Of a stretch of 64,000 nt of DNA, positions 39,007-46,125 are shown in pieces. The notes beneath the pieces are model-generated. The model worked only from the letters and a program-made list of their open reading frames with translations, was not told where the DNA came from and did no database searches. Where the stretch lies: positions 2,108,001 through 2,172,000 of the forward strand of contig CAWJLW010000006.1 in the NCBI GenBank assembly GCA_963843795.1, written 5' to 3'. The DNA is from an uncultured bacterium (lineage in GTDB: Bacteria > Armatimonadota > Abditibacteriia > Abditibacteriales > Abditibacteriaceae). Every line of letters begins with the position of its first letter. Position 1 is the stretch's first letter. A program made the translations under genes and the position numbers.

Positions 39007-39393
39007 CTACTTGGCAACATCGGCAAGTACTTGCCACGCGCGTTCGCGCACCACATCGGTGATTTTTTCGTCGTGGCCTAAATAATCGCCCATCAAAAAT
39101 TCAACGTTTTCATAGCGCTGCGCAGCATCTTCCAGCAAACCGGGTAAATCGTCGGCGACGTGCGTGCCCGAATGCAGGAAATACGGCACCGCAATTACGC
39201 GCGATGCGCCTTTTTCCACACAAGTCGCAATCGCGGTTGGAATATCGGGTTCGTTAAGTTCCATAAACCCGACTTCGACAATTGGATAAATTGCGCGCGA
39301 GCGAATTCGCTCGACAACTTTGAACATATCGCCATTGGAAGCCGGACGTGGGCTGCCATGCACCATCACTAAAAGTGCTGTGTTTTCGTTCAT
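39007..39393 (-). CDS. CbiX/SirB-type chelatase single domain
   Basis: VMVHGSPR, VGFMELNEP, VPYFLHSGTHVADDLP. Confidence 0.88.
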   Translation of the reverse strand: MNENTALLVMVHGSPRPASNGDMFKVVERIRSRAIYPIVEVGFMELNEPDIPTAIATCVEKGASRVIAVPYFLHSGTHVADDLPGLLEDAAQRYENVEFLMGDYLGHDEKITDVVRERAWQVLADVAK

Positions 39394-39884
39394 GATTTCA
39401 CTTCCGAATCAACTTCAATCCCAGGATTTTTCGGGCATTTCGGCGTGCCAAATAACGGGCATTGCGGATCGCCTTCGCACCATTGCGGCGCAATATTGAT
39501 TAAATCGCGCCACTGCTGCGGCGGCATCGCGCGCTCGGCGCATGCCAGAACCGCGTCTTCGAGCGAAGCGTGGTCGCGCATCGCTTCGGCGATAATCACT
39601 TCAATTTCGGGATGGCGCGCTTGCGCGGGCTCGAGAACTTTGGGCAGTTCGACTTTCACGAAATAGCCCGCAATGAGAAAATAAGGCACGACGATAATTT
39701 GGGTTGCGCCCAAAGCCACGCACTCATCGAAAGCCGATCCAAAGCGAGGCGTGGAATAGTTGAGAAATCCGACGCGCACGATGTCGGCAGCGCCACGCGT
39801 CTCCAATTTTTGCGCCAGCAGTTTCAAAGTTTCGCCAGCTCCACACAACGTCGAGCCGTGCGAAAATAAAATTATCGCGTTCAT
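39390..39884 (-). CDS. CbiX/SirB-type chelatase single domain with Cys-rich tail
   Basis: LFSHGS, VGFLNYSTP, VPYFLIAG; C-terminal C-x5-C-x7-C. Confidence 0.8.
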   Translation of the reverse strand: MNAIILFSHGSTLCGAGETLKLLAQKLETRGAADIVRVGFLNYSTPRFGSAFDECVALGATQIIVVPYFLIAGYFVKVELPKVLEPAQARHPEIEVIIAEAMRDHASLEDAVLACAERAMPPQQWRDLINIAPQWCEGDPQCPLFGTPKCPKNPGIEVDSEVKS

Positions 39885-40717: not shown

Positions 40718-42349
40718 TTACCGCTTGGCAATTGCATAATCCTGCACACTGCGCACACCGACCACGCGCTGCTCGGCCTGCGCACGCAACGCGGTGAGAA
40801 GCGCTTGCGCGGTATCCAGAGAAGTCAAGCACGGCACGCCGTGTTCGACTGCGGCGCGGCGAATGCGTAGCCCGTCGTGATCGCTCGACCGGTCGCGTTC
40901 GGGCGTATTGAGTAGAAAATCGACTTCGGGCGCGGTCAAAACTGTCATCAAATTCGGCGCGTCTTCGCGAATTTTGCGCACCGTTTCACATGCAACATCG
41001 TGCGCGGCAAGTACTTGCGCTGTGCCTTGGGTCGCGTAAATTTTGTAGCCCATTTCGGCGAAACCTTTCACAATCGGCGCACCTTCTTCTTTGTCATGGT
41101 TAGAAAGCGTTACCAAAAGCGCGCCGTGCGCTTGCGAACCGTCGGAATGCGGCTGACCCGGCAGCGGAATATCATAACCGCTGGCGACCATCGCTTTATA
41201 CAAGGCGCGCGGAAACTGGTTATCCACGCCCATAATTTCGCCCGTCGATTTCATTTCCGGACCAAGACCGGTATCAACCATCGTGAGCTTTTGGAACGAG
41301 AAAACAGGTGCTTTCACTGCAACCTGATCGGGTGTCGGATACAAACCGGTTTCATAACCGAGTTCTTTCAAAGTCGCGCCCAGCATCACTTTGGTCGCCA
41401 CGCCGACCATTGGCACGCCGGTGATTTTCGACAGATACGGAACCGTGCGCGAAGCGCGCGGATTGACTTCAATAATATAAGCCTGATCGTTTTCGATGAC
41501 ATATTGAATGTTCATCAAGCCTTTCACTTCCAAGGCTTTGGCCATGCGAATCGCATAATCTTCGATTTGCGCGATGACTTTATCGCTCAGGGTTTGCGGC
41601 GGATAAACCGCCATCGAATCGCCCGAATGCACGCCCGCGCGCTCGATATGCTCCATAATTCCGGGCAACAAACAATCGACGCCATCGGAAATTACGTCCA
41701 CTTCGGCTTCTTTGCCGACAATATATTTATCGACCAGAACCGGACGTTCGGAACTCACATCAACCGCGTTGCGCATATAGGATTGTAAATCTGCATCGTT
41801 CCACACGATTTCCATTGCGCGCCCGCCCAAAACGTAACTGGGACGCACTAAAACGGGATAACCGATTTCACCGGCGACCCTCACTGCAGCATCGCCTTCG
41901 GTCACGGCTTTGCCCGGTGGCTTAGGAATATCAAGTTTCACCAGCAAATCATCGAATCGTTCGCGATCTTCAGCCAAATCAATGGAATCGTATTGCGTGC
42001 CGAGAATTTTCACGCCCGCTTCGGAAAGTGGGCGCGCTAAGTTGATAGCGGTCTGTCCGCCGAACTGCACGACGACACCCAACGGTTGTTCGCGGTCGAT
42101 GATATTGAGCACGTCTTCGGTGGTCAATGGCTCGAAATAAAGACGGTCGGAGGTGTCGAAATCGGTGGAAACGGTTTCAGGATTGTTATTGATAACGATG
42201 GCTTCAAAGCCCAATTCGCGCGCCGTGCGCGTGCAATGCACGCTGGCGTAATCGAATTCAATGCCCTGCCCGATACGAATCGGCCCACTGCCGATGATGA
42301 TGACTTTACCCTGCGTTTTTTCTGCGCTATTCAAAATATCGTCTCCCAA
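40718..42349 (-). CDS. carB: Carbamoyl-phosphate synthase large chain, C-terminal half only (carbamate phosphorylation plus MGS domain)
   Basis: Starts at [82 protein letters not shown]. Confidence 0.9.
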
Positions 42350-42460
42350 CTAACCAATACGATGTGTTTTTGTGATGTGAACCGCAGCAATTTTAGCAAA
42401 ATCGCGCGCATCGAAGTCGAAATTACGCGCTGCAAGTACTTGCAGCAGCGATTGCAAACC

Positions 42461-42503
42461 AAAAATAACGCCGCTTTCATCAAATGGTGAAAGCGGCGTT
42501 ATT
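42461..42503 (-). terminator. Intrinsic terminator after the Cys-rich peptide
   Basis: 16-bp stem AATAACGCCGCTTTCA / TGAAAGCGGCGTTATT with T-run on the minus strand. Confidence 0.8.
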
Positions 42504-42509
42504 GACAAT

Positions 42510-42626
42510 TTACTTCTTGCAGCAATCGCCGCTGCAACAGTTGCTGCCGCAGTTGGGACAACAGGTGCATTTATCGCCGCAGCAACAGCAGGCGGCTTGC
42601 ACTACCAGCATCATGATCGTTTTCAT
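42510..42626 (-). CDS. 38-aa cysteine-rich metallothionein-like peptide (not in ORF track)
   Basis: MKTIMMLVVQAACCCCGDKCTCCPNCGSNCCSGDCCKK*; strong SD AAAGGAGG; own terminator. Confidence 0.8.
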   Translation of the reverse strand: MKTIMMLVVQAACCCCGDKCTCCPNCGSNCCSGDCCKK

Positions 42627-42679
42627 GGTTTCCTCCTTTGAATGGAATGCGGTCATCTCGTGTTTTTCGGGTAAAAAAT

Positions 42680-43129
42680 TCAACCTGAAAACGGTGGAGC
42701 ACGACCGGAAACCGTAGGAGAACCAATTTGCAAATGGGAGGGACTTGGCGGCGCACCGCGCGCCATTATGGATAATAGTGCGGGCCGCAATTGCGAATTC
42801 GGGACGACAAAAAAGCCATCGACAAGAGGCAAAGTTGGCTGGTCAGGCGATTCGGGCGTGAAAAGCGCGGCTTTCAACCAAAGCGCCGCAGGAGCACGAG
42901 TGGCATTTGCACTCTGAGGTGGCATTGACACCGGATGGCAGCATTTGGAAAAAGCCCGGGCACAGTGCGGCGACATTTGGGCACAGACAAGAGTTGCGTC
43001 ACCGATTCGTCCGGTGATAGGGCATGCCCAAGAAGGCGCGGGCAACAGCGAGGCGAAAAAGGCTACCATCGCCAGAATTATTGTCGTCGGCCTGCGCCAC
43101 CTTTGCATTGCCGCTTTCATACGGCTCAT
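42680..43129 (-). CDS. DUF2946-like secreted leader protein with C-terminal RAPP arrest motif
   Basis: Signal/TM IILAMVAFFASLLPAPSWA; Cys/His/Met cluster; ends ...SGRAPPFSG*. Confidence 0.7.
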   Translation of the reverse strand: MSRMKAAMQRWRRPTTIILAMVAFFASLLPAPSWACPITGRIGDATLVCAQMSPHCARAFSKCCHPVSMPPQSANATRAPAALWLKAALFTPESPDQPTLPLVDGFFVVPNSQLRPALLSIMARGAPPSPSHLQIGSPTVSGRAPPFSG

Positions 43130-43223: not shown

Positions 43224-43796
43224 ATGAAACGCAGCATAGCGACCCGTAACGGCGACGGCGGGCAAACCAAACTCATATACGGCGCACCCATTTCCAAAGC
43301 CGACTTGCAAGTCGAAGCCTACGGAACGATTGACGAACTCAATTCTTTTCTCGGCCTGGCGCGCTCGCTGTGCGAAATGGAAAGCATCAGCCAGGAACTG
43401 GAACAATTGCAGCGCGAAACTTTCGTCGTCGGTGCCGAACTCGCCACGCCTTTGGAAGAACAAGCGAAACTCAAAACGCGCGTCGATCAAACCCTGATCG
43501 CGCGTTTGGACGAAATTGTAGCGCGTCTGGAAGAAATGCCCGGCGTGTTTGGCGATTGGGCTTTGCCCGGCGCTACACAATGCGGCGCGGCGATTGATGT
43601 CGCGCGCAGTGTGGCGCGCCGCGCAGAACGTTGCGCCGTGCGCTGGCATCAAAACGGTGGCAATTTAAGCGCGGAATTGTTGCGTTATCTCAATCGAGTC
43701 TCGGATGTTCTGTGGCTATTGGGTCGTCAATACGAAATCGAACGCGGCAAAAACGGACGTTTGCGCGCAAATCGCAGCGAATCGTTAATAGCTTGA
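43224..43796 (+). CDS. ATP:cob(I)alamin adenosyltransferase (PduO type)
   Basis: TRNGDGGQT, VEAYGTIDELNS, ARSVARRAER, YLNRVSDVLW. Confidence 0.93.
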   Translation: MKRSIATRNGDGGQTKLIYGAPISKADLQVEAYGTIDELNSFLGLARSLCEMESISQELEQLQRETFVVGAELATPLEEQAKLKTRVDQTLIARLDEIVARLEEMPGVFGDWALPGATQCGAAIDVARSVARRAERCAVRWHQNGGNLSAELLRYLNRVSDVLWLLGRQYEIERGKNGRLRANRSESLIA

Positions 43797-43802
43797 ATTA
43801 AC

Positions 43803-43840
43803 ATAAAAGCGCGCTGCAAGTACTTGCAGCGCGCTTTTAT
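43803..43840. terminator. 38-bp palindrome with 12-mer core between convergent genes
   Basis: ATAAAAGCGCGCTGCAAGT|ACTTGCAGCGCGCTTTTAT. Confidence 0.85.
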
Positions 43841-43853
43841 TGATTTGAAGCAT

Positions 43854-45285
43854 TCAACCATGCGCACGCAGCGACCAATTCTGGCAGACCAAGCCGTTGA
43901 GCGTCCACAGATTGAGCGCCGCGCCATCTTGCAGCGCGCAATTGGCAACGTCCAAAGCCAGTTTTCCGCCACCGCTTTTCGGCAATAAAACGTAAGTGCC
44001 ATCGGCGTTGGGGCGCAGTTCCCACAACTGATTGTCTTTGCCATCGAAAGCCGATAAATCGACTTTGGCGCCCGGCTGTGTGGCATCGCCGATGACACTC
44101 AAAGCGCGTTTATCCTCAGCATTGAGAATCGCGTAGAAACCTTCGCTTTGATGCTGCAAACTCCAGCGTTGCGCGGGCAGGTTTTTGTCGTAGAAAGTTT
44201 GCAGCGCGGTGCCTTTGGTATCGCCCGCGCTTTGTGGTGAAAGCAAACCGTGCGTGGGCAGGGCGGAAACGAGGGCTTGCGGCGTGGCATCGAAAAGCGC
44301 GCGCGGCCAACCGTCAGCGTCCCACGAAAGTCGATACAAACTCAAATGATCGGCTCCGCCATAAACGCGCGACCATTCATAATGGAGCGAAACCTGAAAA
44401 TCGTCTCCGATTTTCAAAATGCCCGCGTGGCCCGGCCCGACCAAATCGTCAATTGGCCGTCCGCTCGTATCGTCGAAGCGCGAAGTCAAGAAAATCGTGC
44501 CGCCGCCTTCGCGCAGATCTTTGCCGTCTTTATCGAGATACGGCCCGCGCACATCGCGCGCGCGCCCGACGCGAATGTTGTAACTGCTCGCGGCATCGGC
44601 GCAGCATTTGTCCCAGTTCACCCACAGATAATAGTAGCCATCGTGAAAATAAATTGTCGGTGCTTCGATGGAATTGGCGCGATCATCGGGACGCGATGCG
44701 ATAGTCGTGATTTCGCTGTTTGGCAAGGTTTTTCCCGTAGCTTTATCGAGTTCGACCAATTGCAAGCCGCCAAAAAACGAGCCAAAGCTAAGCCACAGTT
44801 TGCCTTGCGCATCGGTAAAAACGCACGGATCAATGGCGTTGAAACGTTCGCCGCGCTTCGATTGCACGACCATTCCCGCATCTTTCCAGCTGTCGTGGAT
44901 CAAGCGTGTCATTGTGGCGACGACCGATTGTCGAAACGTTGCTGCCGAAAGTCGAAACCGAATAATAGAGAAAATAGCGTTCACCGACTTGATGCACATC
45001 GGGCGCCCACACAATGTTGCTGGTAATTGCGGGCACAGCGGTTTTCACCCACGCGGGCAACGTCTCAAAAACCGAGCCTTGCCGCGTCCAATGCCGCAAA
45101 TCGGTTGATGACCATTGCGGAATTCCGCGTCCGGTACCGTAAACCCAGTAGGTGTCGCCGCGCTTGACAATAGTCGATGGGTCGCGCGCCACTGCATCGG
45201 TTTCGATGGCGGGCGCGGGCGCGAAAAAGCTCAAAAAACACAATGCAAGTACTTGCAGGGCGATGAGACGACAGAAAAGTTTCAT
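43854..45285 (-). CDS. Secreted GH43 arabinanase-like hydrolase with C-terminal ricin-B lectin; frameshifted near 44895-44930
   Basis: Signal peptide from ATG 45285; ARDPSTIV, WAPDV, NAIDP, GSFFGG, IEAP, GPGH; QxW ricin repeats. Confidence 0.88.
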
Positions 45286-46125
45286 TCTTTGCCACTCGAA
45301 AATTTCGCGCCTTCCACGATATAACGCTGCATCAGCAAAAACACGATAACCAAGGGGCGCGACGCCAACTGCCGCCGCCGTGAACAATTGCGCTAAATCA
45401 ATGGTTTGTGCGGTGAGAAACGTTGAAAGCACAACTTGGACTGTCCACGCGGAAGGGTCTTGTCCGATGACCAAGGGCCACAAAAACGAGTTCCAACTAC
45501 CGATAAAAGTGAGAATACCCAGCGCCATCACGATGCTGACCGAGTTCGGCATCAGCAAGCGCCAGTAAACGCCGAAATAGCTCAAGCCGTCCAAGCGCCC
45601 GGCTTCTTCGATCTCGGCGGGAAAGCGCAGATAAAACTGGCGAAATAGGAAAATCGAAAACGCGCTAAAGACGCCGGGCGCGATAATGCCCCAGCGCGTA
45701 TTGACGCCGTTAAGATACGCCATCACCGCATACGACGGCACGAAAGTCACCGCGCCCGGAATCATCAGCGTCGCCACAATCACGAAGAAAACCACGCTGC
45801 GCCCGCGCGCCGGGATGCGCGCCAACGCATAACCGGCCATCGAGGAAAACAGCATTTGCAGCACCAACGTAACGACCGCAATGAACAGCGAATTGCTCAG
45901 TCCGGTCAACATCGGCGCTTCAGGATTGTTGAACAATTTGCTGAAGTTGCCCCACTGTGGCGGACTGGGTAGCCAGCGCCAGGTCGAAGACGTGATTTGG
46001 TCGCTGGTCATCAGAGCATTGCGCACAATGATGTAAAACGGTAGCAGGAACAAAAACGCCAGCAACAATAACAGCGCATAACGCAGCACGGTGCCGATGC
46101 CAGTTTTCGATTCGCGCGTCTCCAT
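45282..46125 (-). CDS. Carbohydrate ABC transporter permease (MalG-like), +1 frameshift at 45354-45357
   Basis: EIEEAGRLDG EAA motif, SWNSFLWPL; removing one C gives APLVIVFLLMQRYIVEGAKFSSGKE*, whose TGA overlaps the GH43 ATG. Confidence 0.9.

Follow-up and report, generated by a model that had tools for sequence, protein, structure and literature searches.

The window, by which we mean the whole stretch of 64,000 nucleotides analysed here, carries on its minus strand a compact unit of two open reading frames (ORFs): a leader ORF that ends in GRAPPFSG and, 53 nt behind its stop codon, a gene for a Cys-rich peptide of 38 residues. The first-pass annotation had described exactly this arrangement, i.e., a leader ending in RAPP-FSG, a 38-aa ORF behind a strong Shine-Dalgarno (SD) sequence and a clean terminator, and all three elements were confirmed. 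Neither ORF matches a Pfam or NCBIfam family, and a scan for sigma-70 promoters returned no match. The features of the unit and the genes that bound it are, in the direction of transcription of the leader:

43224-43796 (+): cobalamin adenosyltransferase (PF01923, E 6.6e-46), divergent, outside the unit and bounding it
43129-42680 (-): leader ORF, 149 aa, C-terminus GRAPPFSG and stop; likely start Met8 at 43108
43025-43108 (-): predicted Sec-type signal peptide of the leader, with basic start, apolar core, invariant Pro30 and SWA end (sequence, alignment, predicted helix 14-28)
42938-43024 (-): five-Cys cluster C36, C49, C56, C63, C64 (WxCP..C..C..CC), putative sensor (residue conservation in homologues)
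42742-42737 (-): CCCUCC, alternative predicted SD partner (pairing probability about 0.28 in long folding windows)
42716-42722 (-): UUCUCCU, the stretch predicted to pair mainly with the SD when long windows are folded (pairing probability 0.5-0.7)
42707-42713 (-): GGUUUCC, predicted partner of GGAAACC, dependent on the folding window
42692-42703 (-): candidate RAPP arrest motif, R143-P146, with the stop codon three residues later (sequence, homologues)
42651-42706 (-): predicted inner hairpin, whose closing helix joins GGUCGU (Gly142-Arg143 codons) to AUGACC, covering the RAPP codons, the stop and the spacer
42631-42638 (-): Shine-Dalgarno AAGGAGGA in front of the peptide start, each core base predicted to be paired with a probability of 0.9 or more in the free mRNA
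42626-42510 (-): gene for the 38-aa peptide with 12 Cys, start 53 nt past the leader stop (ORF, family profile)
42503-42464 (-): intrinsic terminator-like hairpin, 16 pairs and a U-rich tail, end of the two-gene unit (terminator scan)
40718-42349 (-): CarB-type carbamoyl-phosphate synthase, half-length (543 aa), past the terminator and outside the unit (domain search)

The terminator scan found 2 sites where 1.5 were expected, and the count is therefore not significant in itself; the stem is long, and a terminator occupies the same place in a paralogous unit on contig C2 of the same genome and in a relative. Besides the divergent adenosyltransferase, the surroundings of the unit include a tandem pair of CbiX chelatase genes on its downstream side (39007-39884). 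A tie between the unit and these cobalamin genes was considered and rejected, since such genes are absent among the scanned neighbours in relatives, and their presence is treated as coincidence. Metal genes were not found among the neighbours of the unit within the 64-kb window. An 18-nt palindrome (GCTGCAAGTACTTGCAGC), e.g., at 42429-42446 and 43813-43830, occurs in 30 copies in the window at up to two mismatches (0.01 expected), and its 14-nt core in 1152 copies on the main contig; it looks like an abundant REP-type repeat. The ABC permease at 43854-46125 runs into a GH43 domain whose remainder lies in a different frame, a sign of frameshifts or of errors in the assembly, and a P1B ATPase at locus L077 (1404-3495) is split in a similar manner.

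The leader belongs to a family of 95 homologous proteins, retrieved in a full search of 1.84 billion representatives. As the initial reading demanded, its C-terminal motif is conserved: 89 of the 95 proteins end in R[AGS]PP (RAPP in 73, RSPP in 15, RGPP in one), and the other six comprise three N-terminal-only matches, two long repeat-like proteins and one weak match of 149 aa. The alignment of the 85 full-length homologues shows a Met at the Met8 column in 72 and retains C36 in 83, C49 in 77, C56 in 71, and C63 and C64 in 84 each. Only the cysteine half of the “Cys/His/Met cluster” reported earlier thus stands (71-84 of 85), whereas H55, H65 and M52 are kept in merely 4, 14 and 17 proteins, respectively, and are rejected as metal ligands. 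The distance from the last CC pair to the C-terminal motif spans 69-85 residues in the 83 proteins having both. The predicted signal peptide shows a typical pattern by eye, and in the structure prediction (pLDDT 61.6, pTM 0.30) a signal helix is followed by a small domain of hairpin type and by a linker modelled with low confidence.

At E<=0.01 the leader profile matches 19 of 26 same-family genomes, a wider profile matches 22, and the remaining 274 genomes of the phylum sample yielded only four weak partial matches; two of the homologous proteins are labelled Abditibacteriaceae by NCBI. In the ESM Atlas the matches were confined to clusters without a name, at 0.95 for the leader (most commonly Bacteroidota) and at no more than 0.86 for the peptide, and a scan of a contig collection recovered only the query locus and two partial matches. 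The motif is also written in particular codons, since GCT followed by CCT or CCA is found in 15 of 21 RAPP leaders as opposed to 3% of 451 internal APP motifs of this genome, a bias that points to selection on RNA or on decoding speed.

How does this leader relate to characterized arrest peptides? It had first been assigned to the DUF2946 type, and this assignment is ruled out by profile search and Cys spacing: PF11162 has no match to the window leader at E<=1 and none in the genome, one of 17 homologues matches at E 0.63, and a CxxC located 42-48 residues before the motif, as in CruR (about 45), occurs in none of the 85 full-length homologues. Neither the CxxC nor the CxxxC copper motif of characterized leaders is conserved in the family, which has five Cys instead. 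The window leader does carry the C-terminal RAPP of the DUF2946/CruR class. According to PMC9426467, CruR (Bp2923) of Bordetella pertussis is likewise about 145-149 aa long, has an export signal (predicted for the leader here) and bears RAPP three residues before the stop codon, yet it acts by Rho termination, whereas the unit described here features a 53-nt spacer and a ribosome-binding site (RBS) predicted to be occluded. Copper turns the importer controlled by CruR off (PMC9426467).

A closer likeness is found to CutF-cutO of Rhodobacter capsulatus, where a small leader with a signal peptide combines Cys ligands with a C-terminal Pro-rich stall motif (PMC9973294). The window leader falls within the rule set given there for CutF-like genes, with 149 aa (142 from Met8), PP at 145-146 and a gap of 53 nt. 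In contrast to the CxxxC of CutF (PMC9973294), the leader displays the five-Cys pattern WxCP..C..C..CC; the predicted anti-SD lies inside its last codons, unlike in CutF-cutO; and the target is a Cys-rich peptide of 4-6 kDa rather than a multicopper oxidase. CutF-like genes commonly precede OEP/CusB/CusA genes (PMC9973294; bioRxiv 10.1101/2025.02.05.636593), and the lineage studied here is not among the phyla named for CutF-like leaders in the accessible portions of the two sources. The leader likely represents a new family, and its five-Cys pattern is likely new among CutF-like sensors.

With ApdA, ApdP and several uORF classes the leader has in common a C-terminal RAPP and, by prediction, an N-terminal localization signal (PMC10951233, PMC12992588). 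The same sources describe RGPP and RSPP variants as arresting or partly permissive and list metal-homeostasis genes among the known downstream classes of RAPP leaders; their text and supplements, as far as searched, mention neither a metallothionein-like target nor this lineage, and the full lists, like the 29 CutF-like clusters of PMC9973294, may include members. The literature covered, largely outside the subscription journals, yielded no arrest leader on a metallothionein-like gene and no exported bacterial metallothionein.

The association of leader and peptide was traced from the side of the peptide. A search with a peptide-only profile hit 21 places, one of which lacks a peptide ORF, leaving 20 peptide genes, nine of them seeds of the profile. 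The proposed synteny is sustained by these genes: a RAPP-type leader stands upstream of 19 of the 20 (10 of the 11 non-seed genes), and one has no leader. Among the 19 pairs, 13 genes lie within 70 nt of each other or overlap, five are 180-416 nt apart, and in one case the leader heads the same operon. The pair was also found in three metagenome loci, i.e., 3 of 28 loci detected by a metagenome pattern scan, and in one further genome. The leader-peptide pair is real and conserved, and its role is likely regulatory. In the divergent locus L096 (7142-7594, G002) the frame of the leader continues past RAPP into the peptide gene, and the RAPP-to-SD distance is the usual one.

The genes that follow leaders of this family are of three kinds: Cys-rich peptides, operons of a CusB-type adaptor plus an RND pump, and a small secreted protein with four Cys, which stands before cupredoxin/CusB genes. 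Neighbours were scanned in 20 regions (the nearest 73 of 215 long ORFs, five being rescanned). Within this scope, 10 of 19 leader-bearing regions harbour copper or heavy-metal genes, namely CusB with HMBD/cupredoxin domains, RND, a CopA-type ATPase, a CsoR-type repressor and sulfocyanin; of the 13 regions having both leader and peptide, four contain metal genes and nine have none among the scanned neighbours. The C2 paralogue forms the end of a metal island (RND pump, CDF, DUF326, two P1B ATPases), which is headed by a second, different RAPP leader. An unnamed secreted protein of 103-117 aa follows the leader in copper operons (L004 2050-2364, L009 2053-2403, L016 2277-2585); its tail CPGTxCPxTxxCY..KGAxGAxC is conserved, and the L004 copy is without a Pfam or NCBIfam match.

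The mRNA structure across the second start site was folded between 42720 and 42615, where the hairpin originally proposed is recovered (-27.9 kcal/mol; z -2.15; equalled by 6 of 200 shuffled sequences) and GGUUUCC at 42713-42707 is complementary to GGAAACC at 42633-42627. This outer helix has a probability of 0.95 in that window, 0.16 in 42748-42602 and 0.01 in more extended windows, the whole unit among them, and as the main lock on initiation it is rejected for long windows. The inner helix GGUCGU/AUGACC forms with a probability of about 1.0 in all four windows, and thus, of the hairpin supposed to hide initiation, the inner part persists and the outer part is confined to the short window. 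In long windows the SD instead pairs with UUCUCCU at 42722-42716 (up to about 0.7) or CCCUCC at 42742-42737 (about 0.28).

Whether such occlusion is a property of the family was assessed by a model that places the first Pro of RAPP in the ribosomal P site, with the stall geometry of the footprint taken from PMC10951233, and computes the energy required to open the RBS of the next gene. Twenty pairs with gaps of up to 140 nt were compared with 80 synonymous recodings each (pairs L007, L010, L014 and L039, with gaps above 140 nt, were left out), and the background consisted of 70 pairs sampled at random from 180 ordinary gene pairs of the genome, each given a mock stall and 30 recodings; the codon usage of this genome was applied throughout. 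The native leader codons hide the next RBS beyond the recodings (p<0.05) in 14 of the 20 family pairs, which are kin and not independent of each other, compared to 2 of 70 ordinary pairs; six family pairs do not beat recoding. With a stalled footprint in place, opening the RBS costs on average 5.1 kcal/mol less in the family and 0.3 kcal/mol less in ordinary pairs. The three metagenome pairs show a drop of 8-9 kcal/mol, and one of them beats recoding. In L044, L068, L069 and L076 the RBS pairs with leader bases that are located 21-46 nt 5' of the P site and fall outside the footprint.

For the window copy, the native sequence exceeds recoded ones by 4.4 kcal/mol (p 0.025), a value reached by 1 of 70 background pairs. 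Its opening energy falls from 12.1 kcal/mol in the free mRNA to 9.7 with the standard footprint (a drop at about the 90th percentile of the background), to 7.9 if the footprint reaches -21, and to 7.0 with a queued ribosome. The switch energy of the window copy is below the family mean and modest, because the outer helix forms only in the short window and the SD partner lies slightly upstream. In a four-member subgroup, two pairs of the helix between leader end and RBS have changed on both sides, and these compensatory changes from four sequences are suggestive support for the helix. As the helices differ between subgroups, function appears to recur while structure varies.

Overall, these models support a translational switch across the leader family that is turned on by stalling, as in CutF-cutO, where a stem-loop covers the SD of the next gene and a stall opens it (computed here; PMC9973294); a stem-loop shielding the SD and relieved by the stall was obtained computationally in the family and in modest form in the window copy. 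Mere co-transcription, with the leader acting as a free-standing exported metal-binding protein devoid of cis control, would agree with the modest energy of the window copy, the five relatives in which the peptide gene is 180-416 nt away and the one without a leader. We deem this reading highly improbable, given a near-invariant C-terminal RAPP, a constrained spacing of 69-85 residues between CC and RAPP across a linker predicted to be poorly ordered, and RBS pairing beyond background family-wide.

The conserved R[AGS]PP end in 89 of 95 homologues, the five conserved Cys, the linkage to the peptide, the copper-gene neighbourhoods and the computed RBS occlusion jointly support a CutF-like metal switch acting on a chelating peptide, which we consider the probable explanation of the unit. 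According to this model, the leader would be a nascent-chain sensor, whose five-Cys domain is being passed out of the cytoplasm as translation arrives at RAPP. By analogy to ApdA, ApdP and CruR, the ribosome would stall at this motif, and a metal, probably copper, would prolong the stall. Stalled or queued ribosomes would then melt the mRNA structure over the SD of the next gene and turn on the small Cys-rich peptide, a presumptive metal chelator. The ON direction is suggested by the position of the pairing and by efflux and detoxification targets. The metal-sensing switch on a tiny Cys-rich peptide, as envisaged in the first-pass annotation, is hence retained in its RAPP motif, linkage, copper-gene context and RBS occlusion, and revised with regard to DUF2946, the His/Met ligands and the outer helix.

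The folding shows that a stall equals ON and is silent on how the metal acts on the stall. Arrest at RAPP is intrinsic, and CruR employs this motif such that metal relieves the stall (PMC9426467); with this polarity, metal would turn the peptide off, and the peptide would be a scavenger under metal shortage. We rate this as improbable, since the other targets of the family are of the efflux type (CusB/RND) and stand beside CopA-type exporters, a setting that fits induction by excess, as for CutF-cutO.

The window peptide consists of a 12-residue remnant N-terminus (MKTIMMLVVQAA) and a block of 26 residues with 12 Cys (46%) and not a single aromatic residue; it scores E 5e-6 against the peptide-family profile, of which it is itself a seed. 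In the family of 35 distinct sequences, the mature block contains 26-46% Cys and almost no aromatic residues, and the number of Cys per peptide ranges from 6 to 17, which fits flexible metal-thiolate clusters. Pfam has no family for nine of the peptides at E<=5, NCBIfam no relevant match for four, and a PDB search with the peptide found only a plant peptide (E 0.33) and no solved metallothionein; low-complexity peptides are hard to match, and the missing match to known metallothioneins is therefore a weak test. Bacterial metallothioneins are described as rare, and MymT was once an unannotated ORF of 4.9 kDa (PMC7558416). Like SmtA/BmtA and MymT, as portrayed in this source, the peptide is small, Cys-rich and nearly or entirely free of aromatic residues, the traits of the class, but it departs from them in its CC-rich pattern, in the signal-peptide-like N-terminus of its family and in having no sequence match. 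The target is an undescribed peptide that likely binds metal.

SmtA and MymT are cytoplasmic proteins under transcriptional control. By their sequence, most products of the peptide family are predicted to be exported: in 34 of the 35 distinct peptides the Cys block is preceded by 22-34 residues, which are basic at first, then apolar, and mostly end in AxA, by a script whose threshold forces at least 21 residues; a looser count gives the same picture apart from one mis-called start and four peptides in which a Cys interrupts the apolar stretch. The window peptide is the only one with 12 residues, and the family alignment reveals an in-frame gap in the apolar core of its N-terminus. A longer hidden signal was ruled out, as the sole in-frame ATG further upstream (42656) would lengthen the peptide by ten residues, all polar. 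With its signal peptide cut to 12 residues, the window peptide is likely a cytoplasmic metallothionein-like chelator, and the paralogue on C2 keeps a signal-peptide-like N-terminus and is the predicted exported form. Since the genome carries a predicted exported form along with a signal-less derivative, one envelope sensor may serve chelators on either side of the inner membrane. This wider proposal, i.e., an undescribed exported metallothionein family gated at the codon level by a new five-Cys RAPP leader, which would probe copper in the envelope while being secreted itself, is offered tentatively as a possibility.

The loss of the signal could also mark decay. The family switch would then be genuine and the window copy a degenerating duplicate, whose signal was lost by deletion (or is absent through an assembly error), whose hairpin has drifted and whose product is mislocalized or idle. 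The lone 12-residue N-terminus points in this direction, and no other signal-less peptide was found in 27 family genomes with the peptide profile and the window peptide as queries, a search that very short forms could escape; so do the switch energy under the family mean, the intact paralogue on C2 and the apparent assembly frameshifts in the GH43 gene and one P1B ATPase. Yet the deletion is in frame, the SD, the five Cys of the leader, RAPP, the 12 Cys of the peptide and the terminator are intact, and RBS occlusion still beats recoding (p 0.025), so that we hold decay to be rather unlikely.

The composition of the family bears on a further alternative, namely that the same stall-ON switch senses the thiol/disulfide status of the envelope or secretion capacity and controls a disulfide-bonded secreted mini-peptide or redox buffer. 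The Cys count is even in 29 of the 35 peptides, 19 of which contain three CC pairs, and the genome encodes two VKOR and three DsbA-like matches (without a DsbB match), which makes an oxidizing envelope likely; exported peptides could accordingly be disulfide-bonded. Thioredoxin-fold genes follow the leader or the peptide in L050 and L088, and RAPP leaders are also known before DsbA/thioredoxin genes (PMC12992588). The even counts stem mostly from two subfamilies, though, and 9, 11 and 17 Cys occur as well; moreover, CusB/RND operons that neighbour CopA- and CsoR-type genes are led by members of this leader family, and the window copy lacks an export signal and is nonetheless richer in Cys. We regard a redox role as unlikely, albeit worth bearing in mind, and favour the metal switch on a chelator.

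Should the metal switch hold, it would extend the CutF-like systems by a new class of targets and a new sensor pattern. The degree of surprise is limited, because the regulatory logic of the CutF/CruR type is already known, and RAPP leaders in front of metal genes constitute a recognized broad class (PMC12992588). The unit would offer a compact test system, in which leader start and terminator are about 670 nt apart and the product has 38 residues, and the natural pair with and without a signal in one genome allows asking whether a Cys-rich peptide carries metal or disulfides in an oxidizing periplasm.

Additional leader types ending in RAPP or RGPP, with different Cys/His patterns, are encoded at L077 17575-18033 (G000:C2), G000:C6 2265119-2264715, L149, L150, L151 and L153; the one on C2 heads an OEP-CusB/CzcB-RND operon, and leaders akin to these types precede similar long exported proteins in relatives. 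Finally, high-GC metagenome contigs (L112, L113, L125, L128) harbour an unrelated, helical-looking leader that ends in GRAPPL(S/V)xxCxx and stands 39-42 nt before a conserved protein of 170-200 aa of unknown kind.
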